Part shown: one piece after another, positions 1,346 to 53,948 of the stretch
Layout: each line of letters begins with the position of its first letter
How positions within the stretch are numbered: position 1 is the first letter of the stretch
Assembly: GCA_031414595.1 (NCBI GenBank)
Contig: JANNVX010000067.1
Coordinates: 23,102-87,101 of the forward strand
DNA length: 64,000 nt
From: Deinococcales bacterium
Lineage (GTDB): Bacteria; Deinococcota; Deinococci; Deinococcales; JAAFIG01
Reading direction: 5' to 3'
Program-made: the position numbers and the translations under genes
Notes under the pieces: model-generated
What the model was told of the DNA's origin: nothing
What the model saw: the letters and a program-made list of their open reading frames with translations, nothing else
Database searches by the model: none

Positions 1346-1535
1346 AGGGTTAAAGGGTAAAAAGTAGAAAGCGACCCAGCCCGTGAGCGCGAATAGCCCG
1401 TTAGGTGCTGTTTTATGAGCAAGAAGGTGCATCTTTAGCGACCCAAGCCCGAAGGTGCTGTAGTTGTGGTCAAGAAGGGTCAAGAAGGGTGAAAGTAAAA
1501 ACCTTTAACCTTTTTACCTTTTCGCCTTTTCTACT
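1346..1535. repeat. Inverted arrays of ~8-bp purine/pyrimidine tandem units interrupted by nested 39-bp elements
   Basis: gggttaaa gggtaaaa agtagaaa [insert 1371-1486] gggtgaaa, then complementary cctttaac ctttttac cttttcgc cttttctact. Confidence 0.75.
1371..1486 (+). mobile_element. Three nested copies of a ~39-bp GCG...CAAGAA micro-element
   Basis: Outer copy = 1371-1386 + 1426-1437 + 1477-1486 (38 bp, nearly identical to 53890-53928); inner copies 1387-1425 and 1438-1476 (39 bp each). Mobility is inferred. Confidence 0.75.
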
Positions 1536-1544
1536 GGGGTTTTT

Positions 1545-3011
1545 ATGACTTTGCGTTGGCGTTTGACTTTACTTTACAGTGGTTTGTCTGGGTTGCTCTT
1601 GGCATTGGCGTTTATTGTCACCTATGTGGGGGTTCGTAATACCTTACTCAGTTCCTTTGAGCGCGACTTGGACAGTACCCTGACTCAAGCGGTTGAAATC
1701 ATGAAGGGCAGTGAATTCTACATTCCTAAGCCAGAACAATGGAATGTGTTTGCTCGAGATGCATATGGGCAAGTGTTGCAGTACGATGCGACTGAATTTG
1801 TGGCGACAGAGTTTTTGCAGCTTCAATCGCCAACCTCGAGTCGAAATGCGAATCTGAACGATAAGGATTTTTCTGATATTGATTTGACTTTAGAGGCTTG
1901 GACGCAAGTTGAACGAACAGGGCAGTACCGTGGTTTAGGGCGACTTTCGGCAAGCAAAGAAAATGTTCAAGTTCGAGTTGAACGTTTTGAAGCGATTCAA
2001 TTGGCGGGTCAAGCATTTATTCCGATTGTCTTGGTGGCAAAGTCAAGCGACGACATCAACGGGGTTCTCGAGACGCTACAAAGGGCTTTATTTGTGGTGG
2101 CACTGGTGGGGATTATCGCGGCGGGAATCTTGAGTTATTTTGCTGCCCGTAGTGCTTTAAGTCCCATTACCAGTGTGCGTGATGCGGCGGCTGGCATTGG
2201 TGGGCGTAACTTAAATTTACGTGTGCCGGAACAAGGCACACGCGACGAAGTAGACGACCTTGCCAAAACCCTGAATGCCATGCTCGAGCGTTTAGAATCT
2301 AGTTTTGAAACCCAGCGCCGCTTTACCGCCGATGCCAGTCATGAACTTCGCACCCCTGTCACGGCAATTGCTGGTCATGCTTCGTACCTGATGCGCCGTA
2401 CCAATCCAACGGAAGCCCAAAAAGAATCCCTTGAAGCCATCACCAATTTATCGGTGCGGCTTGGGCGCTTAATTGGTGATTTACTTGATTTAGCCCGTGC
2501 CGATGCGGGTTTTGGTGTGGAACGGGTTTCAACCAACCTGATGAGTCTTGCCGAGGATGTGCATCTCGAGGTTGTGGCAATTGCGGGCAACACCGAAATT
2601 GAATTGCTGGGAGAATCGGCACTGCGGGCATTGATTGACCCCAACCGAGTGCGGCAAGTGATTCGTAATTTGGTACAGAATGCCTTAAAAGCTGGCTCGA
2701 GTAAAATCACGGTAGAAATTAGCAAAGAAGAAACCACTGCCCGCATTACGGTGCAAGACAATGGTTCAGGGATTGCGGCAGAACACTTAAGCAAGCTCTT
2801 TGATCGCTTTTACCGCGTGGATACATCGCGTGACCGAGCGGCGGGTGGCAGTGGTTTAGGTTTAAGTATTGTCAAATGGATTGTTGAGGCGCATCAGGGA
2901 AGTATTGATGTCTCGAGTGAACTTGGTGTGGGAACAAGAATCGAGGTACGTTTTCCAATTGGCGATGTTGGACTGCCAAGTATTCTTAAAAGCCCAACGC
3001 CACAAGGTTAA
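1545..3011 (+). CDS. HAMP-domain sensor histidine kinase
   Basis: Two TM segments, HAMP, H-box DASHELRTP, N-box NLVQNA, DNGSGI, GSGLGL; adjacent to the response regulator. Confidence 0.96.
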   Translation: MTLRWRLTLLYSGLSGLLLALAFIVTYVGVRNTLLSSFERDLDSTLTQAVEIMKGSEFYIPKPEQWNVFARDAYGQVLQYDATEFVATEFLQLQSPTSSRNANLNDKDFSDIDLTLEAWTQVERTGQYRGLGRLSASKENVQVRVERFEAIQLAGQAFIPIVLVAKSSDDINGVLETLQRALFVVALVGIIAAGILSYFAARSALSPITSVRDAAAGIGGRNLNLRVPEQGTRDEVDDLAKTLNAMLERLESSFETQRRFTADASHELRTPVTAIAGHASYLMRRTNPTEAQKESLEAITNLSVRLGRLIGDLLDLARADAGFGVERVSTNLMSLAEDVHLEVVAIAGNTEIELLGESALRALIDPNRVRQVIRNLVQNALKAGSSKITVEISKEETTARITVQDNGSGIAAEHLSKLFDRFYRVDTSRDRAAGGSGLGLSIVKWIVEAHQGSIDVSSELGVGTRIEVRFPIGDVGLPSILKSPTPQG

Positions 3012-3020
3012 CGTCTTGGT

Positions 3021-3045
3021 GGGCAAGGCATGCCTCACCCTTTAC
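3021..3045 (-). repeat. Degenerate GTAG-type REP-like palindrome between convergent genes
   Basis: Minus strand gtaaagggtgaggcatgccttgccc, an imperfect hairpin. Confidence 0.45.
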
Positions 3046-3095
3046 AACCAATGATCTGGCTATTCCCAATTAGAAGAGTAAGTTTAGATGAATCT

Positions 3096-4967
3096 TTAAT
3101 CAGCAGCCACCAATTCAAAACTCACACCTAGATTTGCCAGCACCTTTTTGATTCCAGCCGTGTCTATACCTGCTTGACGGTGCAAACTGCTAACTTCGGC
3201 ATGATCCATAAATGAATCTGGAATACCCAAAAGCCTGACCTCTGGTTTTAGGTCTTGGCTGGCTAAATGCTCCAAGACCGCACTGCCAAAGCCGCCAACA
3301 ATCGTGTTGTCCTCGATGGTGATAATGGCTCGAGCCGAACGCGCAATACCCTCGAGCATGGTGGTGTCCAGTGGTTTAACAAACCGAGCATTGACCACCC
3401 CGACACCCGTTGTGCCTTTGACTGCCTCGAGTGCATAAGTAATGGTATTGCCTGTGGCTAGAATCACAATATCATCGCCGCCCACTAAGCGCTCCCAAGT
3501 TCCCCAAGCAATCTGTTTGCTCGAGCCTTCTGGAACTGGTTTAACCCCACCACGCGGATAACGAATCGCAATTGGTCCACTCATGGTCAGGGCGGTGTTT
3601 AGCATGGCACGAAGTTCGACGGCATCTTTGGGAACACCAATCTGAACATTTGGTACAAGTCGCAAATACGAAATATCAAAGACCCCATGATGGGTTGGTC
3701 CGTCTGCGCCAACCACGCCAGCGCGGTCTATTGCAAAAATCACATTGAGGTTTTCGATGGCGACATCGTGAACCAGTTGGTCAAAGCCACGTTGCAAGAA
3801 GGTCGAGTAAATCGCCACAATCGGGCGCACCCCGCGAAGCGCCATACCAGCCGCCGCCGTAACCGCCACTTCTTCGGCAATGCCCGTGTCCAAATAACGT
3901 TCTGGATGGGTTTGGGCAAACTCGACCAAGCCCGAGCCTTCGCGCATGGCTGGGGTAATCATATAGACATCTTTGCGCTCATGACAGATTTCGATGGCTG
4001 CATCACCAAAGGCATTTGACCATGTGTAGGACTTGCCAACTTCTTCGGGGTCATCCACATCAAACTTAGCCGGGCTGTGCCAATAAATCGGGTTTTCTTC
4101 GGCAATGTCCATGCCCTTGCCTTTGCGGGTGACAATATGCAGCACCGTGGGTCCTTCGAGTTCTTTAATATGCTCGAGCAGATAAACCAGTTCTTTAACA
4201 TTATGCCCATCTACCGGTCCGACATAGCGCAGGTTCATGGCAGTGAACGGATTTTTGCTGTGTGGGTCAAAAAAAGTTCTGGCGGCATCCTTTGCCCTCG
4301 AGACCAAACCGCCCAAGGCTTTACCGACCAGTTTTTTACCACCTTGTTCGGCACTTTGAAACCAGCGCTGAACTTGTAGGGTACGAAAATAAGCATTCAT
4401 TGCGCCGACATTCTCAGAAATGCTCATTTCGTTGTCGTTGAGGATAATCAGCATTTTGGTTCGTTTATAGCCAATGTTGTTCAGGGCTGCCAATGCCATC
4501 CCACCCGTTAAAGCCCCGTCACCAATAATTGGAATGACATGAAAATCTTCGGCTAAACCATCTTTGACCAGTGCATCCCGAGCCAGTGCCATGCCAAAAG
4601 CATTGGCTAAACTGGTGCTGGCGTGTCCGACGGTAATCGCATCGTGTTCGCTTTCCGAGACCTTGGTAAACCCGGACAAGCCACCTTCTTTTTTAATCGT
4701 GTCCATCTGGGCTTTACGACCCGTCAGGATTTTATGCCCATACGCCTGATGCCCAACATCCCAGAGCAACCTGTCTTTTGGACTCGAGAAAACCCTGTGC
4801 AGCGCCACGGTCAGTTCAACTGTGCCGAGGCTCGAAGCCAGATGCAGCCCGCCCCTCGAGCAAACCCGAATGATTTCGTTTCGCACATCTTGGGATAAAG
4901 TCTCGAGTTCATCAAGTTCAAGTTTTTTTAGGTCTTCTGGTAGGTTTACACGGTCTAGGACGCTCAT
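3096..4967 (-). CDS. dxs: 1-deoxy-D-xylulose-5-phosphate synthase
   Basis: [48 protein letters not shown]. Confidence 0.98.
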
Positions 4968-4980
4968 AAGGTACTCCTCA

Positions 4981-5643
4981 CTACTTCTTAAAATTATAAT
5001 TGATTAAAACCAAACCCTCGCGGCTTTGGACTTCGCCAATAAATGGCACAAAACGAATCCGTTGCGATTCGATTACGGGGTCGGACTTACCGCTTAAATC
5101 TTCCAAACGGTTATCGCGCAGAATTAAAAAAGCATCGTAATCGGTGTTGGCAACACGGTACTTTTCTTTGGCAACGACCCTGAACTGATAGGTGTAACGC
5201 AACTTTTGCGGGCTTTGCTTGGGGATGGTCAGGGTGGCGTTGCTTGTACCGCTCCAAGTTTTACCAATCACCAAGTCTTTTTGTGGTGGGTACTCGAGAA
5301 TTGGGGTTTCATAGACCAAATCATAAAAATTTGCTGAGCCTTGGGCAATCAGTTGGACACCGCGTTCATCAAATTGCCGAAAGTAACTGATGTCTTGTCC
5401 GCGTCCGATAAAACGCATTCCGGTTAAAATTCGTCCGTTATAACTCTGAGGTCCCTCGATTCGCAGCGTGTACGGGGTGCTGTCGTTGCGCTCACCGTCT
5501 TTAAGGTATTGCCAAATTGCCCCAGATTGACTTGGATAAAACGCTACATTTGCCCCCGTCCCAGTTTGCCCTGTGACTCGAGACGGTGTTTGTGGGGCGC
5601 AAGCTGCTAAAGCCAGCACCAACCCTAAAGCGGCAATTCGCAT
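4981..5643 (-). CDS. Hypothetical lipoprotein
   Basis: [15 protein letters not shown] lipobox; start moved to ATG 5643. Confidence 0.75.
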
Positions 5644-5736
5644 AACAAAAAGTCTATTCCAAACAACACCAAAAAACTGTGTTCTAAGCATCTCAAATTA
5701 GTAGCACAGCTTCTTCTAACTAACCAGAGTTTTTTA

Positions 5737-7707
5737 TCATCTTTTGGCTTTAGCGTTGGACATCGAACTGGCTTTGGCAGTGTACATCGAATGGTCAGCG
5801 ATATTGGAAAGCTCATCGGTAGTGCTGCCATCCCTTGGGTAAATCGCCATGCCAATACTGGCAGAAACCTCGTGTTGGTGCGTCCCAATCACTACTTTGG
5901 TGGTCAGGCTTTTGGCAAGTTGTGCTGAAATCTGAGCTACTTCTTCGGGTTGTTCTAAATTCGGCAGAATTACTGCAAACTCGTCGCCGCCTAGCCTGGC
6001 AACCGTACTGGCAGCGCTGGTTTCGGCAATTAACTGGCGAGCGATATTTTTAAGCAGTTCGTCGCCCGTGGCATGACTAAAGTTATCATTGACAAACTTA
6101 AAATTATCAAGGTCAATGTAGAGTAACCCGACCGAACTTTTTTGTAGGTCAGCTTGGCGCATGGCGAGGGTTAAACGTTCTTGGTACAAAGCCCGATTTG
6201 CTAGGTTGGTCAGTGGGTCGTGGGTGGCACGGTACTCGAGTTGTTCAAGTAAGGTATTGCGGTCTATGGCAATCGCGCTCAGTTCGGTGGTGGTGTGCAG
6301 CACCCGAAAATTGTCTCTGGATGTACTGGGTAAATAGACCGTCACCACCCCAATGGCTTGATTAGACACCAAAATCGGTAAACTGCGGGTGGCGCGAAAA
6401 TCGTGTTTTAAGATCAATTCTTGTTCGTTATGATTGAAACGTGGGTCACTGATGCTTTGAAGATTTGACTCGAGTTGCCCCACCCAAGTAGCAAAAGCGG
6501 TTTCTTCAAGCGGACGTTGCAACCAAGTGCGGATACTGTTGGGTAAACCGTGGGTGGCAAGTAATTCAAGGTGTCCAGCCCGCAAAGCACTGATGGCACA
6601 ACCAGCCCGTTGAAATTGCGAAGTGGCAAGTTCACAAATTCGCGCCATCACTTCTTCAAGTTCGATATTTCGGGCAATCAACTCGAGAATCTGGTTGCGT
6701 TCACGCTCCAAACGCACCGAGCGTTTATGTTCGGTGATATTGACCATTAAGCCACGCACCCGCACACTGTCGTCTACTTGGGCAAAGGTAATGCGGTCTT
6801 GAATCCACATCAGTTCGCCTTGGTCGTCGTAAGCCCGAGCTTCGATTTCCAGTGGCTCGAGGGTTTTGGTGGCATGACGCAAACGCAAATTCATGGCTGA
6901 CCAGTCGTCGGGTTGGAAGACTTGCGTCCAAAGGTTTGATTCACGTAAGCCTAGAAAGCGCTCGCTCGAATAACCAAATAAACGTTCGGCTTGGCGGCTA
7001 ATAAAGGTGCAATGTAGTCCGCCATCACGGTATTCACCTTCCCAGACCACCCCTTCTAAGGAATTGACCAGTTCTTGGTAAATTGTTTTTGATCGGCGCA
7101 ATTCGGTTTCGGTTTGCTGACGATGCCGCAATTCGGCACGCAACTGGTCAAACAATTCGGCATTCTCGAGCAGAGGTGCAGCCGCCGCCGAAGCACTTTG
7201 AATAATATCAATTTCGTGTTCGTTAAATTCACGCACGGTGTACGAATCCAAACCCAGTGTCCCGACCACGCGCCGCCCAGCAATAATTGGCACAATCAAC
7301 ATACTGGCGACTCCAAAGGCTTTGGCGATGTCCCGCGCTGCGCCCATCCGAGGGTCGTTTTGGGCATCCAGCACCGCTACTGGTTGCCGTCTTGACAAAA
7401 CCAATTGAGTAATCTCGTTGTTCTCGAGTGAAATCTGCGCCCCTAAGTTTCCAGTATTGCCCTCGCCATACTCAGAAATAATCGTCAGTGCCTCGCCATC
7501 TTCGTTCAGCCGAGCAAAACCAGCGTGTTGCACTCCAACCACTTCGATTAACTCGGCACAAATCACGTTTAAGACCGTGACTGGCTCAAGCGGAGCGCCA
7601 GCCGTGGCAACAATGTGTTTTAGCATTGTGGCTTCGGTGAGACGTTTTTCTAACTCGAGTTTATTAAAACCCATTTGTGGAATTTGGTTACTTGGATTTT
7701 GGCTCAT
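5737..7707 (-). CDS. GAF-PAS-GAF diguanylate cyclase
   Basis: HDPLTNLANR, IDLDNFK, ARLGGDEF; N-terminal GAF and PAS-like segments. Confidence 0.92.
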   Translation of the reverse strand: MSQNPSNQIPQMGFNKLELEKRLTEATMLKHIVATAGAPLEPVTVLNVICAELIEVVGVQHAGFARLNEDGEALTIISEYGEGNTGNLGAQISLENNEITQLVLSRRQPVAVLDAQNDPRMGAARDIAKAFGVASMLIVPIIAGRRVVGTLGLDSYTVREFNEHEIDIIQSASAAAAPLLENAELFDQLRAELRHRQQTETELRRSKTIYQELVNSLEGVVWEGEYRDGGLHCTFISRQAERLFGYSSERFLGLRESNLWTQVFQPDDWSAMNLRLRHATKTLEPLEIEARAYDDQGELMWIQDRITFAQVDDSVRVRGLMVNITEHKRSVRLERERNQILELIARNIELEEVMARICELATSQFQRAGCAISALRAGHLELLATHGLPNSIRTWLQRPLEETAFATWVGQLESNLQSISDPRFNHNEQELILKHDFRATRSLPILVSNQAIGVVTVYLPSTSRDNFRVLHTTTELSAIAIDRNTLLEQLEYRATHDPLTNLANRALYQERLTLAMRQADLQKSSVGLLYIDLDNFKFVNDNFSHATGDELLKNIARQLIAETSAASTVARLGGDEFAVILPNLEQPEEVAQISAQLAKSLTTKVVIGTHQHEVSASIGMAIYPRDGSTTDELSNIADHSMYTAKASSMSNAKAKR

Positions 7708-7763
7708 GATCTTGACTTAATCTACCAAAAAATAAATGAGGAAGAACCCATCTTTGGGTTGGC

Positions 7764-8927
7764 TTAGTAGTCCGAGCCAAGGCGCACTGTAATATCTGCG
7801 CCAAGCACACCCTCACCACTGATACGCCCTGTACCAACCCCCAAAGCTGTGCCAATCACCCGAGCCTCGAGTAAACTGCTCGAGGATAAAACCTCGGATG
7901 TATTGGGGTCTCCGCCGGTCACATCTGCCAGCCAAACAAACCGAAAACCAGCCGTGCGTAATTTCTCTCGGGCGCGTTTGGCTCGAGCCGCATCGGTGGC
8001 AACAATCGCAATGCTCAATTCAAATGGGTCACGGGCGGGTTTGTCTTTAGCGTTGCGAAGGTTAGAATCTACCAAGGCTGCTACGGCTTGGGTGTTTGGA
8101 ATCCAAAAAGAATACCTTCCTAAACGCCCAAAATCGCCCGGCAACAACAAGGTATCTACCCGAGGACGCTGCACCAAAAACCCCAATGCACCACCCACTT
8201 CTGTGCGGCTTAAATTGGTACGAACATGTTTTTCAAAGACCTTGGCGAGTTGCGGTAAACGCCCCCAAGATTCTGGTTGTTGTAATTTCTCGAGCAATGC
8301 CCGAAAAAAGGCTTGCTGACGTTGGGTGCGTCCAATATCGCCAAGGTTATCGTAACGAAAACGCACAAAACCTTCGGCTTCTTGCCCCGTTAAAACCTGC
8401 CAACCGGGTTTTAGGTTAATCTCGAGTTTAGCGGCTTTATCGCTGTACTGCATGGCTTGTGGAACATAAATTCTGACTCCGCCAAGTGCATTTACCAAGG
8501 CTTTTGTGCCATCTATTGAAACAAATAAATAGCCGTCTAGTTTTAAGTTCAGTAAGCCCTCAACGGCTCGCACACTCGAGTCAAAGCCGCCAAGCATCGC
8601 CGCATTGATTTTGTCGCGGGTGGTGTTGCCCGCCCCAACATGGGTATCACGCGGAATCGAAAGTAATTTAATGGCTTTTTGGGCAGGGTTGAGTTGTACC
8701 AGTACCATGGAGTCAGTCAAACCCAACTGAAAATCATTCTCGAGTGTTCCACGGGTGTGATAGCCTACATAATGGTGTCCGACACCCGCCAGTAAAAAGG
8801 TAATGGGTTGCTTGGGCGCACTTGGAAAAGCCGCGAATCTCGAGATTACACCCCAAGCTGGATATGACCAGAAACCACACGCCCCAAGCGCTGCCAGCAA
8901 TAAAAAAGAAAAAAAGAATCTTCGCAT
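7764..8927 (-). CDS. LCP (LytR-CpsA-Psr) family protein with LytR_C-like tail
   Basis: TDSMVL, LLSIPRDT, KINAA, FVRFRY, GDIGRTQRQQ. Confidence 0.92.
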   Translation of the reverse strand: MRRFFFSFLLLAALGACGFWSYPAWGVISRFAAFPSAPKQPITFLLAGVGHHYVGYHTRGTLENDFQLGLTDSMVLVQLNPAQKAIKLLSIPRDTHVGAGNTTRDKINAAMLGGFDSSVRAVEGLLNLKLDGYLFVSIDGTKALVNALGGVRIYVPQAMQYSDKAAKLEINLKPGWQVLTGQEAEGFVRFRYDNLGDIGRTQRQQAFFRALLEKLQQPESWGRLPQLAKVFEKHVRTNLSRTEVGGALGFLVQRPRVDTLLLPGDFGRLGRYSFWIPNTQAVAALVDSNLRNAKDKPARDPFELSIAIVATDAARAKRAREKLRTAGFRFVWLADVTGGDPNTSEVLSSSSLLEARVIGTALGVGTGRISGEGVLGADITVRLGSDY

Positions 8928-9001
8928 AAACCCCGAGGTCGCTCGGGAAATCTATGATACGTGGTAGCTGTGAGAAGCATGAAGAATTTATAATGACGCG
9001 A

Positions 9002-9730
9002 CTAGCGCAATCCGAACGCCACCGAAACCACCGCTGTGATTTCCTTTTCGATGCTGCTGGTGTCAAACGCACCGTAATCATCCACACTTGGGCTATTTTT
9101 AGCCGTAATCTGAAACACACCGACTCGGGCGTTACGTGGTGCGCCAATTCCCACACCCGCACCCTTGGCAATCACTTCAGCACGTTTTTTAGCGTCACTT
9201 GTGGCTTCCTCGAGCATTTGAATTCGTAAATCGGCGAGCTTGGTGTACAAGTAACTCAGTTCGGCTTCAAAAGGCACACCATTAGAAAGCATGTTTTCGG
9301 CAGTTTTACCAGCCAGAGCAGTCACGGCTTGCACTTGGTCACTCGAGACTTCGACCCGTTGACGCACCCGCCAAGCTGGAATGGTAGTGCGTGAACCATC
9401 GCTATTGGTACGCTCATAGGTTAGCGGTTCGCTCGAGATTGGGGCTAACTCGAGTTTGACCCCAGCCCCGTTCGCCGCCACAAAAGTCTTTAGGCGGTCA
9501 ACATTCTTTTTTAAGTCTGCCACAGCCGTTTGTAAATTGCTATTTTCTGCCGTGACACTGCCTTTCCACTGCACGAGGTCGCTGGTGATGGGTTTACGCG
9601 CACTGCCCGTGACCGTAATATCCGAATCACTTCGAGATTCCTTAATCGCGTTACTGCCAAGAAATGCACCAACCACGATAGCGACTGACAAACCGAGCAT
9701 CCCTAAGAAATTTCCAAGCGAATTATTCAT
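9002..9730 (-). CDS. SIMPL (DUF541) domain protein
   Basis: N-terminal TM, ITVTGSA, EATSDAKKRAEVIA, GVFQIT..DTSSIEKEI. Confidence 0.85.
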   Translation of the reverse strand: MNNSLGNFLGMLGLSVAIVVGAFLGSNAIKESRSDSDITVTGSARKPITSDLVQWKGSVTAENSNLQTAVADLKKNVDRLKTFVAANGAGVKLELAPISSEPLTYERTNSDGSRTTIPAWRVRQRVEVSSDQVQAVTALAGKTAENMLSNGVPFEAELSYLYTKLADLRIQMLEEATSDAKKRAEVIAKGAGVGIGAPRNARVGVFQITAKNSPSVDDYGAFDTSSIEKEITAVVSVAFGLR

Positions 9731-9844
9731 GACCTATATTGTACTGTTTTTTTGGTGAGTGAAGTCTCATCAAGATTAATTGGTACTTAATCTTTTGTCT
9801 CGAGGACAGCAAATTATTGGTTTTCTAATCGAGAATGTTGATCT

Positions 9845-9878
9845 AAAAATAAACCCCAAGTCTGTTTGACTTGGGGTT
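9845..9878 (-). terminator. Intrinsic terminator after the S8 peptidase gene
   Basis: 11-bp stem aaccccaagtc/gacttggggtt followed by tattttt on the minus strand. Confidence 0.75.
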
Positions 9879-9895
9879 CTCGAGACAAAAAGATT

Positions 9896-11629: not shown

Positions 11630-11746
11630 ATTTGAACCTCCAGCATTACTTTTACCACACGAAGACTACCAAAGTAGCATCACACAATTGTCAAATGAAA
11701 TTTTTCATTCACTTCTTGTAAGACAGATACTATCCAAAGTAGCGTC

Positions 11747-11811
11747 GCACCAGCGTCGCATGGGAATCTGCACCAGTCTCGCATGGGAATCTGCACCAGT
11801 CTCGCATGGGA
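11747..11811. repeat. Tandem 23-bp repeat (~2.8 copies)
   Basis: gcaccagtctcgcatgggaatct units at 11747, 11770 and 11793, no spacers. Confidence 0.9.
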
Positions 11812-35538: not shown

Positions 35539-36432
35539 ATGAAAAACATTGTAAAGAACTGGGCAATTGGATTTGGGATAGGAATTTCTGGACTTGGCGT
35601 AGCTGCCGTGACACTGCCACACACTTTTTTACCAGGAACACCGATTAAATCGGCGGACATGAACGCCCAATTTTTAGAAATCAGCAAAGCCATTAACAGC
35701 CTCGAGACCCAACTCAATACAGTCAAAGGTTCGGTTACGACCCTCGAGACAGGTAAGCAAAAACGAGTTACTGGAACGTGTACCATCGGCTCGAGTATCC
35801 GCACCATAGATGCCGAAGGTAATGTCGAATGCGAACTGGACGATATTGGCGGCAATGGCGGTAGTTTCTCGGCAGGCGCGGGTTTGAATTTTACAAATAA
35901 TGTTTTTTCGGTAGCCGATGCTGGAATTACCACTTCTAAATTAGCCGACAGTAGTGTCAATGCCGCTAAAATTGCCGATGAACCAGCCGTTGCCCAAAGC
36001 ATAGACACCGATGGTCACGGCACAATGGCACAAGGGCAAATTATTATTCTCGAGCAAGTCACGGTTCAAGCTCCAGCCAATGGTTTTGTACTGGTGATTG
36101 GTTCAACCCAAGTCGGTATTGTTGCCACCACCAATTCATTCCCAGCCGCCGCTTTTGGAGTTTCTAAATCACCAACCAGCATGGATAACGAACAAGTAAA
36201 GTTTGTATCTGCCCCACCAGTCGCTGCCAATGCCAACAATAATTCGGTTTTCCAAACGGTCTCGAATCAAAAAATCTTTGCGGTCAATGCAGGGGCAAAC
36301 ACCTTTTATTTACTAGGAAGCCGTCAAGTGAGTACCCCTGTCAGCAGTAAAAAAGAAACTTTGTCGGCTGTTTTTATCCCCTCGAGTATGGGAACAGTTG
36401 AAGAAATTGACCTCGGCACGCCACCGATTTAA
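35539..36432 (+). CDS. Secreted fibre-like protein
   Basis: Signal-like N-terminus, LPHTFLPGTPIKSADMNAQF, coiled coil, ITTSKLADSSVNAAKIAD repeats, beta-rich head. Confidence 0.7.
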   Translation: MKNIVKNWAIGFGIGISGLGVAAVTLPHTFLPGTPIKSADMNAQFLEISKAINSLETQLNTVKGSVTTLETGKQKRVTGTCTIGSSIRTIDAEGNVECELDDIGGNGGSFSAGAGLNFTNNVFSVADAGITTSKLADSSVNAAKIADEPAVAQSIDTDGHGTMAQGQIIILEQVTVQAPANGFVLVIGSTQVGIVATTNSFPAAAFGVSKSPTSMDNEQVKFVSAPPVAANANNNSVFQTVSNQKIFAVNAGANTFYLLGSRQVSTPVSSKKETLSAVFIPSSMGTVEEIDLGTPPI

Positions 36433-36478
36433 GTATCTCACACCTCCATTTTAGAATCTTCAAAATGCGGCAATTCTG

Positions 36479-36517
36479 TTCTTGCTTATAAGATAGCACC
36501 TCACGGGCTATTCGCGC
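36479..36517 (-). mobile_element. 39-bp GCG...CAAGAA micro-element copy
   Basis: gcgcgaatagcccgtgaggtgctatcttataagcaagaa, 35/39 identical to 1387-1425; lies between 12-bp inverted repeats 36433-36444 and 36525-36536. Confidence 0.75.
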
Positions 36518-36647
36518 TCATTTCGGTGTGAGATACGCCTAAATTGCCTCGGTATAAAACGACTCGAGCAACCCCAGTTTTTTCTCATGGGTATGAACCC
36601 ACGCCATCAGTTCAATATAATCCAACAGCAACGATAGGAGGTACATT

Positions 36648-42299: not shown

Positions 42300-42316
42300 A
42301 GAAATAGTTAATCTAA

Positions 42317-43678: not shown

Positions 43679-43736
43679 AACAACATAATAACATAAATAT
43701 ATGCCAATTCGAGAAAATTAAAACAGCACAAAATGA

Positions 43737-43823
43737 GGGCAGAAACAACCGCACTTACCCTCGTCTCGAGTTTGACGGCGGCAGAGGGGTGTTAGAAAAC
43801 GCTCTCGAGTGCCGCCAATGCCG
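43737..43823. repeat. Right direct repeat flanking the TA cassette
   Basis: Encodes a degenerate RsmE C-terminus (RAETTALTLVSSLTAAEGC*) and the functional alaS stop. Confidence 0.9.
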
Positions 43824-46479: not shown

Positions 46480-46657
46480 AAGGCACAAGTGTACCAAAAC
46501 CTCAAAACAAACGAAAGCGCGTTTTGACCTGAGTGCCGCTTTGGATAAGGCTTTTGACCTTTCATTCTTTGTGACTGCGAATTCGGGGTAGCCATCCTCC
46601 TCGAGTAGCAACAATTGGTTGTTCTCGAGAATCACAGCGCAAGCTCGTTTGACTCGG

Positions 46658-47272
46658 TTAAAGTTCATCCTTGTATTTGACCAGTAACTCTTCGAGGGCT
46701 TCACGCAGTAAACTGGCTTCGGTTCGCCCTGTGGCACTGCTTAATTTGCCCAGCCGCTCGAGTTGGGCTTTTGGGTAGAAATTACTTTTGAGGGTCATTT
46801 TATCTTCCACGTAAATGGCAACACGCCCACGTCCTTCGCGTTTGGCACGGTACATTGCTTCGTCGGCGCAACGCATTAAATCAGCAATGGTTTTAGCATG
46901 GGGTGGCTTGGCGGCAATGCCCACCGAAAGCTGTATTTTTCTGGGGATTTCTGGGCTGATGTTGTGGCTCGAGAAGTGGCTGCGAATTTCCTCGAGTAAA
47001 ATCAAGGCGCTCTCGGCGGTGGTGTCTGGGATGGCAGCTGCGTATTCGTCTCCACCAATTCGTCCGACAATCGCATTTTCTGGGAGGCTGCCACTTAGGG
47101 TGCGTTCTAAACTTCGTAGCACCGTATCGCCAGCCGCATGACCTAGGCTGTCGTTGATTTCTTTGAAGTGGTCTAAGTCTATTAGGGCAATCGCCATAGC
47201 GCTGCTCTCGAGGTGACTCAGGGCTTGTTCAAAGTCGTGACGGTTAAGAACGGGCAAGTAATTCATATGCAC
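46658..47272 (-). CDS. GGDEF domain protein with C-terminal ribbon-helix-helix-like domain
   Basis: IDLDHFKEINDSLGH, GRIGGDEY; tail QLERLGKLSSATGRTEASLLREAL. Confidence 0.88.
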   Translation of the reverse strand: MHMNYLPVLNRHDFEQALSHLESSAMAIALIDLDHFKEINDSLGHAAGDTVLRSLERTLSGSLPENAIVGRIGGDEYAAAIPDTTAESALILLEEIRSHFSSHNISPEIPRKIQLSVGIAAKPPHAKTIADLMRCADEAMYRAKREGRGRVAIYVEDKMTLKSNFYPKAQLERLGKLSSATGRTEASLLREALEELLVKYKDEL

Positions 47273-47291
47273 TCCTGTTGTAAGATTGTAA

Positions 47292-47323
47292 ACATATATA
47301 TATCACACACAATATATATATGT
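47292..47323. promoter_or_regulatory. 12-bp inverted repeat over the GGDEF-RHH promoter
   Basis: acatatatatat-N8-atatatatatgt overlapping minus-strand TTGACA. Confidence 0.65.
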
Positions 47324-47383
47324 CAAACGTATCGTGTTCTAGCCCTTGCAAGTCTTGTCACGTCTCGAGTAACATAAGTCTAC

Positions 47384-48055
47384 ATGGAAGCCCATCATTA
47401 TCTCCAAGCCCTCGGACTGACCGAATACGAAGCTCGAGCCTACACTGCACTGCTTTCGCTTGGACGCGCCCAACCCGCTAAAATTGCGCGGCACAGCCAC
47501 ATTCCACGCCCAAAAGTCTACGAAACACTAGAACGCCTCGAAGCCCGAGGACTGGCTACCCGCACCCAAGTTTCGCCGCTCGAGTATGCACCGTTATCCG
47601 CCCGTGAGTACATCAACCGAGCTGACCGCGAATTCAAAGGCAGACTCGAAGGACTCGAGCGCAGCTTGGCAAGGCTTGCTCCAGAACCCGCCCCAGAAGC
47701 GGTGTACCCCTTGCGTGGCGAAGCTGCTACGTTGGCACTGGTCGAAGATATAGTCCTCAACTCGAGTAAAACCCTGCACATCGCTGGAGAACCTGAATTG
47801 GTGGCTCGGCTTGCCTCAAAAACCGCTCGAGCCGTGGCAGTTCACACCTCGAGTTTAGAAAATATGCCCGCCATTGCTGCCGACGGACAACGCCCGCTCT
47901 TGGTGGCAAGGGACGGCGAAGCGGTGGTGATTGCCCATTTGACCGAAGACGCGACTCAAGTTCATGGGGTGCATTCGCATAATCCAGTGATTGTGCGCTT
48001 GGTCGAAGGGTACATTGAACTGGCTGGACAGATTAAAGACAAGAAAAAGAAATAA
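47384..48055 (+). CDS. TrmB-family transcriptional regulator
   Basis: LGLTEYEARAYTALL, IPRPKVYETLERLE.RGL. Confidence 0.9.
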   Translation: MEAHHYLQALGLTEYEARAYTALLSLGRAQPAKIARHSHIPRPKVYETLERLEARGLATRTQVSPLEYAPLSAREYINRADREFKGRLEGLERSLARLAPEPAPEAVYPLRGEAATLALVEDIVLNSSKTLHIAGEPELVARLASKTARAVAVHTSSLENMPAIAADGQRPLLVARDGEAVVIAHLTEDATQVHGVHSHNPVIVRLVEGYIELAGQIKDKKKK

Positions 48056-48088
48056 AATCCCATTTTTGACTCACTCTAAGAAGTTAAA

Positions 48089-48271
48089 ATGTCGGCTATG
48101 GGTATTTTAACAATTCTTTGTGGTGTTCTGATGTTAGCCATTGGCGCAGGTAGCATGATTCAAAAAAAGAGCCTTTTACCAGAAATCAAACCAAGCGAAG
48201 CCGCGCTTGCCACGATTCCAATGGGTTTAGTGATTTTAGTAATTGGGATTATTATTCAGACCAAAAGCTAA
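48089..48271 (+). CDS. Small two-TM membrane protein
   Basis: 60-aa ORF with two hydrophobic helices filling the gap. Confidence 0.55.
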   Translation: MSAMGILTILCGVLMLAIGAGSMIQKKSLLPEIKPSEAALATIPMGLVILVIGIIIQTKS

Positions 48272-48283
48272 TCTTTAAGCCTC

Positions 48284-48604
48284 TTATTTCTCGTAGATGC
48301 AGTATTCAGAACTTTCCGAAAACAATTTTGTCCACGTTTTTTGTCCAACCACACCATCTTGGATCAATTTATTGCGGAGTTGAAAGTATCTGACTGCACC
48401 ATCGGTTTTCTTGCCAAAAATACCATCGGCTTTGCCAACTTCTTTGCAATTAAAATAGAGTAAGCGCTGTTGGGCAGCTTTGATATCTGCTCCAGTCATG
48501 GCTGGGGTTTTGAGAAATAAATTCCGTGTAAGTTTTGGTGCGCTTTGAGCCAACACGAGGCTCGAGACAAGCAGCACTACACCCAGTAAAAAGTATTTTT
48601 TCAT
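48284..48604 (-). CDS. Secreted peptidoglycan-binding domain protein
   Basis: Signal peptide; [26 protein letters not shown]. Confidence 0.88.
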
Positions 48605-48653
48605 ACTCCCAAGTTTATCATGCGGACTCGAGTTTGTAATACAATACAGGCTC

Positions 48654-50120
48654 ATGAAACATATTCTAGCCCTTGACCAAGGCACAACTTCGTCTCGAGC
48701 CATCGTTTTTAGTGAAGATGGTCGGATTGTCAGCCGTTCACAAAAAGAACTGCATCAAATTTATCCGCAACCCGGTTGGGTCGAACACGATGCCAACGAG
48801 ATTTTAAGCACCCAATTGCAAACCGCACGGGAAGCCTTGTCTGGTGTGCTGGGCGAAGTTGTAGCCCTTGGTATCACCAATCAGCGTGAAACCACGGTGC
48901 TGTGGGAACGCGCTACGGGTAAACCAATCCATAACGCGATTGTTTGGCAAGACCGCCGTACTGCCTCGTATTGCGACGAGTTAAAAGCACTTGGTCTCGA
49001 GCAAAAATTCAAACAAAAAACAGGTTTGCTGCTTGACCCATATTTTAGTGGTACAAAATTGCGTTGGTTGCTCGAGAATTTACCAGATGCTCGAGAACGT
49101 GCCGAAGCTGGAGAACTGGCATTTGGTACGGTGGATAGCTGGTTAATTTACAACTTAACTGGTTTTGAAGTTCATGCCACCGATGTCAGCAATGCTGCTC
49201 GGACACTCTTATTTAATATCCAAACCCTCGAGTGGGATTCAGAAATCCTCGAGTTAATGAATATCCCACGGGCGGTGCTGCCCGAAGTCCGTGCCTCGAG
49301 CGCCAGTTATGGCATTGCCAAAGCCCTCAATAACTTGCCAATCACAGGTGTGGCTGGCGACCAACACGCGGCGCTTTTCGGACAAGCCTGTTTGGATACT
49401 GGCATGGCAAAAAATACTTACGGCACTGGTTGCTTTATGCTTCTGAACACGGGTTCAAAACTGGTCTCGAGCGCTTCTGGACTGCTGACCACTCCTGCTT
49501 GGCAAATTGGCAACCAAGCCACTTATGCGCTCGAAGGAAGCGTTTTTATTGCTGGGGCAGTGGTGCAGTGGTTGCGTGACGAAATGAAGTTTTTTTCCGA
49601 TGCCAAAGAAGTCGAAACCCTGGCTGCTAGTGTGCCAGATAACGGTGGGGTCTATCTTGTGCCAGCCTTTGCGGGGTTGGGCGCTCCACACTGGGATGCC
49701 TATGCTCGCGGTACAATTATTGGGCTTACAAGAGGTACAGGCAGGGCGCACATCGCCAGAGCCGCACTCGAGGCAGTGGCGTTTCAGACCAAAGATGTTT
49801 TGGAAGCCATGCAGCAAGACAGTGGTGTCAAGCTCGAGGCGTTGCGGGTAGATGGTGGTGCAACCAGCAACGACCTACTGATGCAATTCCAAGCCGACAT
49901 TTTGGGTGTACCCGTCGAGCGTCCAAAAATTACCGAAACTACAGCATTAGGCGCGGCATTCTTGGCGGGTCTCGAGTCTGGGCTGATGAACTTAGATTCG
50001 ATTCGCAGCACATGGCAACTCGAGCGGCGGTTTGAGCCTCAAATGAGTGCAACTGAGCGTGAAAAACTCTATGCGGGATGGAAAAAAGCGGTGGAACGGG
50101 CTAAGGCGTGGGCGGAGTAG
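48654..50120 (+). CDS. glpK: Glycerol kinase
   Basis: [36 protein letters not shown]. Confidence 0.98.
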
Positions 50121-50191
50121 GAAAGGTGATTGAAAATCAATTCACTCGTAAGGGCAAAAACCTTTCAGTACACATAGAATCACAATCAGTT

Positions 50192-50421
50192 AGCCCCTCT
50201 CCCGACTCGCTTAGGCTCGCCACCCTCCCCTAAATCGCTTCGCTGGGGGAGGGTTTGGAGTATGGGGCTTTGATTTTATAAATCCTTAAAAAGTGCTTCC
50301 GGAAAGGCGTTTTTAGGTAATTTATCCCAAAAAACCGTAGCAAAAAGACAAACCGAACAACCCTCTCCCGCGCTGTTTGGCGGGACGAGGGTAACGAGCC
50401 TAGGCGAGTTGGGTGAGGGCT
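50192..50421. repeat. ~230-bp imperfect inverted repeat element (CCCTC...GAGGG type)
   Basis: ccctctcccgactcgcttaggctcgccaccctc pairs with gagggtaacgagcctaggcgagttgggtgaggg; each arm has its own hairpin; AT-rich central hairpin. Confidence 0.75.
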
Positions 50422-50454
50422 GCATCACGTTTTGGACGACTTAATTCTCGAGCA

Positions 50455-51147
50455 TTAGGTTTTTTGGTGTATTTGAATTGCAGCTTCTAATACTTCGCGG
50501 CTCGAGAGTAGACTTTGCAAAACCATTTGTTTACTGGCTTCGATTTGGCGTGTGGCTATACTCATTACGGCTTGCTGGTCTTTTTGCTCGAGGGCGGTCA
50601 GTAAATCTTCGTGTTCGTGGGTGGCTTCTTCGCTGCGTGGTTGAATCAGCATCCCAAATTGAATTAAACGGCGGCTTTCGGCAAGGCAACTTTCCACAAT
50701 CCCAGCCAAGCGCCGATTGCCCGATGCCTTAGCGATAATGCTGTGAAATTCGGTATTGGCTTGTTGAAAGGCTTGGATGCTTTTTGGACTCTGTGGGTCG
50801 TAACCTGTTCTAGCCAGTTGATGCAGGTGCTTCAAGGTTTTTTTCTCGAGTTTTCCAATTGCCATAACCACGGCTTGTGGCTCGATGATGCTGCGTAATC
50901 CAAAAACTTCTTCAACATCGCGCAGGGAAATCGGTGCGACTTCGTAACCGTGCCGAGGAATAACCACCATTAAATTATCATTGACCAAACGTTGCAAGGC
51001 TTCGCGGACTGGGGTTTTGCCCAAACTCAGGCGCTCTAAAGTTCCGCTTTCGGTCAGTCGTGTACCGGGCATCAGCTGACACTCGAGAATTTCGCTGCGG
51101 AGGTGCTGATAAGCATATTCGGCTTGGGAGGTGTTCTTTTGGCTCAT
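50455..51147 (-). CDS. GntR-family regulator (FCD type), divergent from the hut operon
   Basis: GKTPVREALQRL HTH; NTEFHSII..SGN and HEDLL FCD motifs. Confidence 0.92.
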   Translation of the reverse strand: MSQKNTSQAEYAYQHLRSEILECQLMPGTRLTESGTLERLSLGKTPVREALQRLVNDNLMVVIPRHGYEVAPISLRDVEEVFGLRSIIEPQAVVMAIGKLEKKTLKHLHQLARTGYDPQSPKSIQAFQQANTEFHSIIAKASGNRRLAGIVESCLAESRRLIQFGMLIQPRSEEATHEHEDLLTALEQKDQQAVMSIATRQIEASKQMVLQSLLSSREVLEAAIQIHQKT

Positions 51148-51182
51148 GGTGTTTTGTACCTTTTTGTGGGTCTCGAGTCAAC

Positions 51183-51217
51183 TTGACGAACTCCAAAGAC
51201 ATCTGTAATATATCACA
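51183..51217 (+). promoter_or_regulatory. hut promoter with palindromic operator
   Basis: TTGACG-17 nt-TAATAT; TGTAATATATCACA (51204-51217) overlaps the -10 box. Confidence 0.7.
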
Positions 51218-51252
51218 AAAGAAATCTAAGCAGATTACAAAGGAGTTCGACC

Positions 51253-52896
51253 ATGAACATTATTCGTGCTGCAAGAGGCAACCACCGCACCGCCAAAGGC
51301 TGGATTCAAGAAGCCGCCAAACGAATGCTGATGAATAACCTTGACCCCGAAGTTGCCGAGAATCCTGCTGAACTGATTGTTTATGGTGGGCGTGGCAAAG
51401 CCGCCCGTAACTGGGAGGCGTACCATAAAATCGTTGAAACCCTAGACAGACTCGAGAATCACCAAACCCTGTTGGTGCAGTCTGGTAAACCTGTGGCGGT
51501 TCTCGAGACCCAGCCGCTTGCGCCAAGGGTCTTAATTGCCAATTCTAACCTTGTGCCAAATTGGGCAACGTGGGAAGAGTTTGATCGTTTAGACCAAGCT
51601 GGCTTAATGATGTATGGACAAATGACGGCTGGAAGCTGGATTTACATTGGTACACAAGGCATCCTCCAAGGTACGTTTGAAACCTTTGCGGCGGCGGGTA
51701 AAAAACACTTTGCTGGCTCGTTGGCTGGCACAATCACGGTCACGGCTGGATTGGGTGGCATGGGTGGAGCGCAACCTCTGGCGGTCAAATTAGCGGGTGG
51801 GGTGGCGCTTTGTATCGAACTTGACCCAAGCCGAATGCAGCGCCGCCTCGAGACTCGCTATTTGGATGAAGTGGCGGTGTCTTTGACCGATGCGATTGCC
51901 CGCGCTCAAAAAGCCAAACTCGAGAAACGCGCCCTCAGTATTGGTATTTTGGGTAATGTTGCCGAGGTGCTACCCAAGATGCTCGAAATGGGCTTTCTGC
52001 CAGATTTACTGACCGACCAAACCTCGAGCCACGACCCAATGTGGGGCTACATTCCGCCGTCTAAGTCCGATGAGGACATCAACAGGTTGCGAACTGTCCA
52101 ACCTGAAGAGTATTTAAGCCGTACTCGAGCCGCCATCGCCCTGCATGTCAGCACGATGATAGAAATGCAGCGCCGAGGTGTGATTGTTTTTGACTACGGC
52201 AATAATCTACGCGCCCAAGCCAAAATTGCTGGACTCGAGAATGCCTTTGACTACCCCGGATTTGTCCCCGCTTTTATCCGCGATTCTTTTTGTGAAGGGC
52301 GAGGTCCGTTTCGATGGGTGGCACTTTCGGGCGACCCAGCCGATATTGCTGCTACTGATGCGGCGCTGCTCGAGTTGTTCCCCGATGATGCACGTCTGCA
52401 AAACTGGCTTGGGTTTGCTTCAAGCCAAATTCAATTCCAAGGCTTGCCTGCTCGAATTTGCTGGTTGGGCTACCGTGAACGTGATAAAGCCGGACGGCTC
52501 TTTAATCAAATGGTGCGGGATGGGCGCTTAAAAGCCCCGGTTGTAATTGGACGTGACCACTTAGACGCGGGCAGTGTTGCCAGTCCATACCGTGAAACTG
52601 AAGCAATGCTTGACGGCTCAGATGCCGTTTCTGACTGGGCATTGCTGAATTTTGCGACGGGAATTGCCAGTGGCGCGGCTTGGATGAGTTTTCATCACGG
52701 CGGCGGGGTTGGCATGGGGTACAGCCAACATTCGGGCTTGGTTGCCGTGGCAGACGGCAGCGAGGAAGCCGATACGCGCTTGCGCCTGTGTTTGACCAAC
52801 GACCCTGCAATGGGCGTGATTCGTCATGCCGACGCGGGTTATGACCTTGCCAAAAAAGCCGCTACTGAGCGCGGTGTGGACATGCCAAGCCTATGA
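51253..52896 (+). CDS. hutU: Urocanate hydratase
   Basis: [40 protein letters not shown]. Confidence 0.98.
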
Positions 52897-53801
52897 GCCA
52901 GCTTCCATATGTCGGTATCAGCACCTTTGCCAGAGCCAAGCACCAACCACTCGAGACGATGTGGACAGCCGATGTGGGTATTCTTGGCATTCCCTTTGAC
53001 CTCGCCTTGGGTTTTCGCCCGGGAGCGCGTTTTGCCCCTCGAGTGCTGCGTGAAGCCAGTCTGCGCTACGCCTTACCCAAAGAAGGATTTTACGACCTAC
53101 ACAGCAACGCCATGCACTTAGCGGGTCTCGAGATAGCCGATGCTGGCGATGTGAATTTGCCCAGTCTCGAGCCAGAATTATCGCGCATCAGAATTTTTGA
53201 AGCTGTCACTGCCCTGCGTTCTCGGGTTAATCTACCAATTTTTCTGGGTGGCGACCACAGTGTGACATACCCGATTCTGAAGGCTTTTGGGGATATTCCA
53301 GAACTGCATATTGTCCAATTTGATGCCCATTTAGACTTTAGCGATTCACGCAACGACACGCATTTTTCCAACTCGAGTCCATTTCGCCGGGCTGCCGAAG
53401 ATATGCCGAACCTTAAACACATCACCACCCTTGGCTTACGCGGCTTGCGATTTGACCAAGAAGCTGTCCAAGCCGCCAAAGCTCGAGGGCATACTTTAAT
53501 CCTGATGTCTGAGATGACCAATCTCGAGCGGGTGATTTCTTTATTGCCAGACGGTAAAAATGTCTATATTTCTTTTGATGTAGACGTTCTTGAGCCAAGT
53601 TTAGTTCCTGCTACGTCCAGCCCAGAACCCGAAGGCATGGGTTTTGGTATGGCAGTTAATCTTTTAGAAGCCGTGGCAGCTAGAAATACCGTGCTTGGTT
53701 TTGACTTGGTGGAATTTGCCCCGAACCTTGACTCGAGCGGTAACAGCGGACTTTTTTTGGCGCGATTGATGATGGAATTTTTGAAAGCGGTCATGAAATG
53801 A
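52893..53801 (+). CDS. hutG: Arginase-family ureohydrolase, probable formimidoylglutamase
   Basis: GGDHS, FDAHLD, SFDVD; function inferred from position in the hut operon. Confidence 0.7.
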
Positions 53802-53830
53802 ATGTTAGAAGATTAAATATTTGTCGTTAC

Positions 53831-53948
53831 AGGACAGACACGGGGGTCTGTCCCTACGAACAGGGCATCACAATTGCGTCAGGTAGGGGGCGACCCCAGC
53901 CCGTCAGGTGCATCTTTAGGGTCAAGAACGAACCCCTGTGTTCGCCCT
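53831..53948. repeat. Divergent pair of GTAG-type REP palindromes
   Basis: Minus strand gtagggacagacccccgtgtctgtcct (53831-53857); plus strand gtagggg|cgaacccctgtgttcgccct (53883-53948) split by an insert. Confidence 0.8.
53890..53928 (+). mobile_element. 39-bp GCG...CAAGAA micro-element inserted in a REP
   Basis: gcgaccccagcccgtcaggtgcatctttagggtcaagaa; removal restores an intact REP hairpin. Confidence 0.8.

Follow-up and report, generated by a model that had tools for sequence, protein, structure and literature searches.

A probable mobile micro-element family of about 39 nucleotides in an uncultured Deinococcales lineage

Units in the window and anatomy of the family

The DNA analyzed here, referred to as the window, is a 64,000-nt stretch of a Deinococcales bacterium (G000:C67:23102–87101; the G000 assembly comprises 4.49 Mb in 120 contigs at 47% G+C). 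It contains five related units of about 39 nt, which a preliminary description had taken for a micro-element whose insertion, into hairpin repeats as well as into its own copies, leaves no target duplication. By re-reading the window, all five were found where they had been placed, namely at 1387–1425 (+), 1438–1476 (+), 36479–36517 (−) and 53890–53928 (+), and as an outer unit split by the first two (1371–1486); all start with GCG, end with CAAGAA and share the core AGCCCG-N1-2-AGGTGC. The units and their host repeats, which include a repetitive extragenic palindrome (REP) and a repeat resembling a MITE (a miniature transposable element with inverted repeats), are as follows (bit scores refer to the covariance model described below).

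1371..1386 (+): 5' piece of the outer (host) unit, carrying GCG, one arm of the outer stem and the inner hairpin as far as loop A; rejoined with the other two pieces it equals the copy at C75:83667–83704
1387..1425 (+): inner unit 1, GCGCGAAT subfamily, between loop A and GGTGC of the host; 58.9 bits; precisely absent from the G001 ortholog and from the 716-nt X5 contig
1426..1437 (+): middle piece of the outer (host) unit, GGTGC and linker; from window reading and excision
1438..1476 (+): inner unit 2, GCGACCCAA subfamily, between linker TTTA and 3' arm GGGTC of the host; 49.6 bits; also in G001
1477..1486 (+): 3' piece of the outer (host) unit, GGGTC arm and AAGAA; from window reading and excision
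1345..1370 (no strand): octamer-like array (GGTTAAAG / GGTAAAAA type), left flank of the outer unit, the right flank being at about 1487–1530; the G003 ortholog is the array alone and the C75 paralog has similar flanks
36479..36517 (−): GCGCGAAT-subfamily unit in slot 2 of the MITE-like repeat; 53.0 bits; slot empty in C26:58114
36430..36541 (−): host repeat of the preceding unit, a partial copy of a ~190-nt MITE-like family with the ends TAAGTAYCTC...GAGATACTTA, the unit lying in the loop of its long hairpin; from paralog comparison
53890..53928 (+): GCGACCC-subfamily unit that interrupts the 5' arm of a GTAG-type REP; 57.7 bits; the site is empty in four paralogs of the same genome
53883..53947 (+): target REP hairpin, GTAGGGG / unit / CGAACCCCTGTGTTCGCCC, inside a composite repeat (about 53826–53949) with a second REP; from window reading and paralogs

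When the two inner units were removed, the three outer pieces joined into a 38-nt unit, which is a near-match to 53890–53928 as had been described and is also identical to the intact copy at C75:83667–83704, whose flanks are likewise octamer-like. Removal of 53890–53928 restored the REP; the restored 26-mer occurs intact seven times in the genome, and four paralogous copies of the REP composite in the same genome are empty at the insertion point GGTAGGGG^CGAACCCC. Deletion of the outer unit, which had been expected to restore an octamer array, did so only roughly: what flanks the unit resembles octamers, and a plain array is found in the G003 ortholog. The preliminary description had also distinguished two subfamilies, whereas 17 different 5' arms were counted among the units of the genome. 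The CAAGAA end holds for the five window units, whereas the family-wide end is CAAGA(N)A, and the proposed hairpin with a bulged T accounts for the inner stem-loop but omitted an outer stem that covaries.

In the whole G000 genome, the pattern GCCCG-N2-4-GGTGC-N10-15-CAAGA gave 108 matches compared to one for the reversed control, and the core AGCCCG-N1-4-AGGTGC gave 60 matches, 59 of which were family members. A full-unit expression collected 104 intact units of 36–40 nt, and iterative removal of these 104 restored 13 split host units (11 at level 1 and two at level 2), showing that further copies are present genome-wide. The core hairpin occurs 120 times, 104 times in intact units and 16 times elsewhere, where all but four read as remnants of the family. 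A covariance model built from 30 units gave 122 matches in 100 sources, with the four intact window copies at E ≤ 7e-15. Five pairs of neighbouring units lie within 150 nt of each other, four of them direct and one divergent (inverted).

Each unit consists of GCG, a variable outer stem of 5–6 bp, the inner hairpin GCCCG-(N)NA-GGTGC with the bulged T, a linker and CAAGA(N)A. The commonest of the 17 kinds of 5' arm are GCGACCAT (34 units), GCGCGA[AG][TC]A (22) and GCGACCCAA (20), and the 3' ends of the 104 units are CAAGAA (66), AAGACA (28), CAAGAG (6), AAGATA (2) and CAAGAT (2); empty sites indicate that the extra base of CAAGA(N)A belongs to the element. In an alignment fitted to the covariance model, which favours structure, five of the six outer-stem pairs were changed on both sides, and the covariation score of the outer stem was 0.204. 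Shuffled alignments averaged 0.065, none of 500 reaching the observed score, and slid controls did not exceed 0.041. The compensated arm pairs are GACCAT/ATGGTC, GACCAC/GTGGTC, GATTCC/GGAATC, GAACCC/GGGTTC and GCCC/GGGC, with GGTCTC/GAGACC, GATGCC/GGCATC and GGTTTC/GAAACC added from other metagenome-assembled genomes (MAGs), and the outer stem of one subfamily contains a tandem G.A/A.G. The inner helix GCCC/GG-GC with the bulged T is 99.5% paired and invariant; because it never varies, covariation is silent on it, so this helix is neither backed nor contradicted by covariation. Against Rfam 15 the window had no match at the gathering score, and 1300–1560 gave one match at chance level (E = 3.5).

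The two middle bases of the inner loop differ between otherwise identical units, and the 14 GCGACCAT...GCGTTTATGGTC units carry five different loops. The loop also varies in length among units (e.g. window 1401–1402 and 53904–53905), and that of the orthologous outer unit is GTGA in G000 and GCAA in G001. The same loop is the commonest site of nesting; its variation may represent excision footprints or neutral drift.

Filled and empty sites, distribution and targets

For comparison we used the 19 genomes of the family (G000 and 18 others) and 42 genomes from four sister families of the order, all of which are metagenome-assembled; repeats break the assemblies and may be collapsed. The spacer between the response-regulator and kinase genes that holds 1371–1486 is 90% identical in G001, where the outer unit and inner unit 2 are present and 1387–1425 is exactly absent. 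Since inner unit 2 is common to G001, it is the older of the two, and 1387–1425 is the youngest insertion at its locus. The G001-like empty form was found again in a diverged strain on the X5 contig (716 nt, from a public run), whose alignment skips from 1383 to 1424. Contigs of public runs also show the C75 paralog, and within-strain presence/absence polymorphism was not visible in the assembled contigs of these runs. A REP that is intact in G007 is filled in G005 by a unit which itself carries a nested unit. Nine further G000 units were followed into congeners: for five of them a unit-free orthologous site exists (precisely empty in four cases, one of these in three genomes, while in the fifth the REP has diverged), for two the closest genome, G005, is the only one with a filled site, and the remaining two were not assessable. 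Precise empty orthologous sites, which the preliminary description had recommended looking for, are thus present in genomes of the same genus, and most insertions differ between congeneric genomes. No duplication of target bases, as had been stated for the window copies, and no loss of them was found at any resolved site.

The larger host repeats likewise exist in filled and empty form. Slot 1 of the MITE-like repeat (CCGACTAA^CAGGAG) is occupied by three subfamilies in three copies (C101, C106 and G003) and empty in at least seven copies; slot 2 (GAAATGA^CAGAATTG), which is filled at 36479–36517, is empty in the copy at C26:58114 of the same genome, and C106 carries another subfamily 3 nt upstream. 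Units were found in at least six unrelated host contexts. Their targets include hairpin repeats, short-period arrays (4 of 104 units in arrays of period 6–9), larger MITE-like repeats and units of their own family, the last at four different positions: after loop A, where nesting is most frequent, at the boundary of the 5' arm with GCCCG, inside GGTGC after GGT, and at the boundary of the linker with the 3' arm. Nesting together with paralogous and orthologous empty sites bears out the proposal of a very small, non-autonomous element, mobile until recently, which enters hairpin repeats and its own copies and leaves no duplication there, and we consider it highly probable that the family is a mobile micro-element.

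In G010, a genome of another genus, units stand head to tail and abut directly (CAAGAA/GCG), being mostly identical within a locus. At the G010 loci L229–L238, two or three tandem units lie inside a recurring three-way structure, GAACACCG-TCCAGCACG...CGTGCTGGA-[units]-CGGTGTTCTCGAG, which may represent either a structured RNA or some larger element that carries the units.

The pattern matched in all 18 other genomes of the family (31–318 matches in 16 of them, 8 in G013, on one contig, and 1 in G002). On the other hand, the 42 genomes of the four sister families gave 0–3 matches each, which is chance level, the reversed-pattern control giving 0–2 in all genomes. A scan of one genome per species returned at least 120 loci; among the 80 matches listed, 45 were in MAGs of Deinococcales or Deinococcota bacteria, often several in each, and none was in a cyanobacterial record. 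The other 35 among those listed were single hits, mostly in GC-rich genomes, 30 of them with fewer than four contiguous outer-stem pairs; these single hits outside the Deinococcales were judged to be chance matches, of which about 170 were estimated for that pattern. Likewise, 26 pattern matches in viral contigs were attributed to chance (none family-like, 25 of 26 with at most three contiguous outer-stem pairs, regions of 52–73% GC), and the plasmid collection gave no match to 1371–1486. We somewhat favour the statement as a whole, in which a ~39-nt non-autonomous mobile DNA family is confined to one family-level uncultured Deinococcales lineage and the mover is left open.

According to a crude open reading frame (ORF) call, which over-calls and labels 90% of the genome as coding, 78 of the 104 units are intergenic, and the remaining 26 lie in called ORFs, mostly flanked by REP sequence. 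The target consensus sought at the 104 junctions is weak (C at −3, 55; A at −2, 69; A at −1, 59; G at +1, 69), the leading junction dinucleotides being A^G (41 times) and T^G (18 times). In predicted DNA folds of 60-nt rebuilt empty sites, 55 of 94 distinct junctions fall within a hairpin loop or at its margin, compared to 103 of 369 control positions taken 200–300 nt away. Among these loop junctions, 45 of 55 are within 2 nt of the 3' arm and 11 of 55 within 2 nt of the 5' arm, and junctions preceded by three unpaired bases and followed by one (3,1) occur 15 times, the mirror image (1,3) never. Since REP hairpins, being almost palindromic, receive units in either orientation, the coupling of position and polarity indicates that a single strand is cut and that this strand determines which way the insert points. 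Insertion is strand-specific, and in these predicted folds it usually falls at the 3' side of a hairpin loop, after an A or T and before a G, which lends indirect support to the earlier idea of a single-stranded or hairpin target, and single-strand targeting of hairpin loops seems to us reasonably probable. With respect to flanking genes, 29 units are co-directional and 21 opposed, indicating no preference. Units also recur in another family of hairpin repeats, GAGGGGGTCGCCGAA^GGCGGGGGGAGT (e.g. C31:27395–27433, C64:21815–21853, C105:20921–20958 and C109:82912–82940).

Search for a mover and competing explanations

As the preliminary description had noted, there is no candidate mover in the window, and none adjoins any of the copies either. 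A longer gene-carrying element with the same ends, which it had proposed to look for, was not found: 5' and 3' halves with complementary arms do not occur 100–8000 nt apart in the genome. The core is exclusive to the micro-elements, and no core stands beside a gene-sized insert.

Among known enzyme classes, Pfam Y1_Tnp gave one weak match in the genome. The protein, of 234 aa, is encoded within a type I restriction-modification operon and scored 62.9 bits with the NCBIfam model 'REP-associated tyrosine transposase' (RAYT), below its cut-off of 80. With this RAYT-like protein as the query, relatives were found in 16 of the 18 other family genomes compared to 8 of the 42 sister-family genomes, along with a second paralog in G000 at C109:4189–4776. 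GTAGGG tags occur close to the RAYT-like genes, consistent with ordinary REP-RAYT pairing. The search for the IS91 Y2 transposase (PF04986) found it in 0 of 61 genomes and was also silent in all 14 control genomes, so it is uninformative. One TnpB gene is present (C25), with no core hairpin nearby. The reverse transcriptase domain RVT_1 was detected in 5 of the 19 family genomes and not in G006, G007 and G011, which are 92–94% complete and hold 44–125 units.

The RAYT-like HUH gene itself (C98:106767–107468 (−), L239:1765–2469) lies between hsdM and hsdS-like genes, and the middle of its protein is a low-complexity insert, rich in His/Asp/Pro and then composed of Gly-Gln and Ala-Pro-Thr-Ser repeats. 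At C82:67380–69239 (+) (L200:1279–3141) there is an intact reverse transcriptase of 620 aa with RVT_1 and a partial group II maturase domain (GIIM), the start of which overlaps the end of an upstream 278-aa ORF matching no known family. Of the 18 other family genomes, one contains a relative, and the start of C69 bears a fragment of 77% identity, next to an ORF with a SAVED domain; the C82 enzyme is probably defence-related.

A single-stranded intermediate is inferred because a double-stranded circle of 39 bp is sterically implausible and DDE cut-and-paste would leave duplications. The target, and probably the element itself, would be handled as folded single-stranded DNA, with the invariant inner hairpin serving as a putative protein-binding site and the constant ends as putative sites of cleavage and joining. 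In a circle or tandem, the junction CAAGAA^GCG would form a 7-nt loop closed by the outer stem (G3:C35 pair), and a cut in this loop 2 nt before the 3' arm would match the geometry of the targets, making donor and target alike; excision, insertion, nesting and tandem formation could then all be the work of a single enzyme that cuts A^G at the 3' side of a loop. This enzyme would act in trans, the leading candidate being a HUH nuclease such as the RAYT-like proteins. HUH nucleases (Rep and TnpA proteins) are cutters of hairpin loops that rejoin single strands. The presence of RAYT-like genes makes a HUH mover possible, and we name a HUH or RAYT-like enzyme only tentatively. A previously undescribed loop-to-loop transposition of single strands, in which an enzyme seated on the inner hairpin would cut the junction loop and the 3' side of any exposed loop and swap the strands, is in our judgement a doubtful proposal.

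Several results pull the other way from the picture of a self-inserting element moved on single strands. Some units ride as passengers of larger repeats, so that copy number overstates their own insertions, and many of the target sites belong to a few REP families, so that the target counts are not independent events. The loop positions come from predicted folds of rebuilt sites, and single-sequence folds of the units as DNA are weak (−3 to −5 kcal/mol, z of −0.07 to −1.55) and no better than shuffles; therefore it is covariation on which the structure rests. Orientation was biased neither with gene strand nor with the local skew in GC (25/26 against 19/27, p = 0.54); this skew is weak (mean |0.016|) and the contigs are short, which leaves the skew test with low power. 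No linkage of an enzyme to the units was seen: the core hairpins nearest to the two RAYT-like genes are 14.6 and 24.7 kb off, none of the 10 Y1 gene loci in relatives has the hairpin within 1.5 kb, and G005, with 74 pattern matches at 84% completeness, yielded no RAYT-like gene. Moreover, RAYT-like genes would be expected in any case because the genome is full of GTAG-type REPs.

With no known transposase linked to any unit, an unrecognised enzyme that is neither a HUH nuclease nor a reverse transcriptase is nearly as likely as a HUH mover, for example a tyrosine recombinase acting on folded single strands or a lineage-specific structure-specific nuclease-ligase. Integron integrases act on attC, and XerCD on the CTX phage hairpin, as folded single strands. 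The restriction of the element to one family would make a lineage-specific gene plausible, and duplication-free insertion into hairpins together with tandem arrays resembles the insertion of cassettes by attC x attC recombination. Against this explanation, no R-box-like ends of the consensus GTTRRRY / RYYYAAC are visible, and insertion goes into a wide range of loops instead of a single site. Reverse transcription is disfavoured. A route in which the hairpin is transcribed, reverse-transcribed and integrated would suit the covarying stem, the GNNA-like loop known from structured RNAs, the heterogeneous 3' end CAAGA(N)A and the one intact 620-aa protein with RVT_1 and GIIM; yet RVT_1 is limited to 5 of 19 family genomes, the C82 enzyme is sporadic (1 of 18), no Rfam family matches and flanking genes have no bearing on how the units are oriented, so that we regard this route as very improbable.

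Two further explanations dispense with self-mobility of the units. If they were modules of mosaic repeats, hitch-hiking in larger mobile repeats and spread by recombination or gene conversion, one would understand why the units at 36479 and 53890 sit at the same place in larger multi-copy repeats and why those of G010 share one recurring host structure. However, the same larger repeats also occur empty with exact boundaries, one slot holds three subfamilies in three copies while a neighbouring position holds another, and hosts are varied (at least six unrelated contexts and four positions inside the family); orthologous unique loci differing by exactly one unit largely refute the idea, which we hold to be improbable. 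Selection for function, with the units as protein-binding or RNA-stability hairpins, would be in keeping with the strongly conserved inner hairpin and ends, the maintained outer stem and the intergenic position of 78 of the 104 units. Against it, nesting splits host units, insertions enter other selfish repeats, presence and absence vary among close relatives, there is no relation of orientation to genes, and function would leave the origin of the copies unexplained; we give this explanation very little weight.

The family is among the smallest mobile elements seen: at this size its units can neither encode anything nor form double-stranded circles. Even so, they clearly move, insert into one another and remodel intergenic DNA. 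We know of no mover for elements as tiny as these, and the movement of the Nostoc repeats discussed below has, to our knowledge, been an open question since 2008. The present family sets constraints on such a mover, namely an invariant putative binding hairpin, arms that are free to change but stay paired, strand-specific insertion at the 3' side of loops, and no need for a reverse transcriptase. The 19 related genomes, with pattern counts from 1 to 318, can be mined for it, and if found it would provide a compact, structure-guided DNA insertion activity.

Known small elements and other repeats of the genome

IS200/IS605 elements transpose by single-strand chemistry without target duplication, and their hairpins contain an extrahelical base. 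The preliminary description had named them for comparison, and the units resemble them and their non-autonomous derivatives (PATEs) in having a hairpin with an extrahelical base and in leaving no duplication, as judged here from exact empty sites. Otherwise the link finds no support. IS200/IS605 elements have separate hairpins at the left and right ends, whereas the units have a single compound hairpin; their derivatives are at least 130 nt long in contrast to 39 nt; they insert 3' of a fixed tetra- or pentanucleotide, unlike the weak C-A-A^G found here (53–66% per position); and there is neither a skew bias (the skew being weak) nor a Y1 gene with the hairpin, nor a parent insertion sequence with the same hairpin in this genome. 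Like the units, IS91 elements and Helitrons carry a hairpin close to the 3' end, a few bases away from it, and make no target duplication; they insert between two fixed bases, and IS91 uses CAAG/GAAC, the former resembling the end of this element. Read-through in such rolling-circle transposons could likewise yield tandem copies, although they are three orders of magnitude larger than the units.

REPs are described as imperfect palindromes of 20–40 nt that occur in intergenic regions in hundreds of copies and for which the HUH protein RAYT is the proposed mover (Bertels and Rainey 2011, PMC3116915; Di Nocera et al. 2013, PMC3733652). The units resemble REPs, and REP doublets (REPINs) with their RAYTs, in being small intergenic palindromes in genomes with RAYT-like genes. 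Unlike these, they start with GCG and have no GTAG or CGTC tag at the foot of the hairpin, form one inverted pair among five neighbour pairs rather than inverted doublets, do not flank a RAYT gene (distances of 14.6 and 24.7 kb as given above), and insert into REPs and nest instead of being REPs.

The closest likeness is to the small dispersed repeats (SDRs) of cyanobacteria. Elhai et al. 2008 (Genome Res 18:1484) reportedly described SDR4–6 of Nostoc punctiforme and relatives as hairpin-forming repeats of 21–27 nt that are nested and lie in short tandem arrays and palindromes. Both kinds of unit are much shorter than 100 nt, dispersed in many copies, nested, placed in palindromes and arrays, and have no known mover. 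They differ in host, which is Deinococcota here and not cyanobacteria, and in length, 38–40 nt as opposed to 21–27 nt; the covarying outer stem, the invariant inner hairpin and the 3'-side loop targeting are features shown in the Deinococcales units. The comparison with Nostoc repeats that the preliminary description had drawn is thus a fitting one as to kind, and by analogy with the SDRs, not by sequence, the family may be regarded as a new Deinococcota counterpart of them, and as a second, independent system in another phylum. If loop-to-loop transposition as outlined above were true, the same class of machinery would underlie the Nostoc SDRs, which would make this a general, overlooked kind of bacterial mobile DNA. 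Elhai et al. 2008 may already hold comparable observations on target geometry. In the literature searched, mostly outside subscription journals, no published description of such elements in Deinococcota was found, and a review of small repeats contains no mention of SDRs (PMC3184786).

The genome contains other repeats that accompany the units. The ~190-nt MITE-like family (ends TAAGTAYCTC...GAGATACTTA) has an internal GAAATGTTTTAG/CTAAAACATTTC hairpin and is a two-slot landing pad for the micro-elements. Copies lie at window 36430–36541 (−), C101:8652–8841, C106:62068–62262, C26:58114–58262 and loci L051–L059, and several genomes of the same genus have it too. A composite repeat of ~200 nt, at about 53800–54010 in the window, contains two different GTAG-type REP hairpins and ends in most copies with GAGCCTCCGAAAG...CTTTTCGGAGGCTC; further copies are at C72:37990–38055, C109:17679–17752, C91:2518–2588 and C74:3182–3251. 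It looks mobile itself, because a whole block of ~207 nt is missing between conserved flanks in G005. The palindrome CTCGAG occurs 23,235 times in the genome, i.e. once per 193 bp compared to a naive expectation of once per 4096 bp, and Tandem Repeats Finder at a low score threshold reported 285 arrays of period 7 and 161 of period 8. The abundance of CTCGAG, the heptamer and octamer arrays and the micro-elements together mirror the triad of HIP1, heptamer repeats and SDRs in Nostocaceae.

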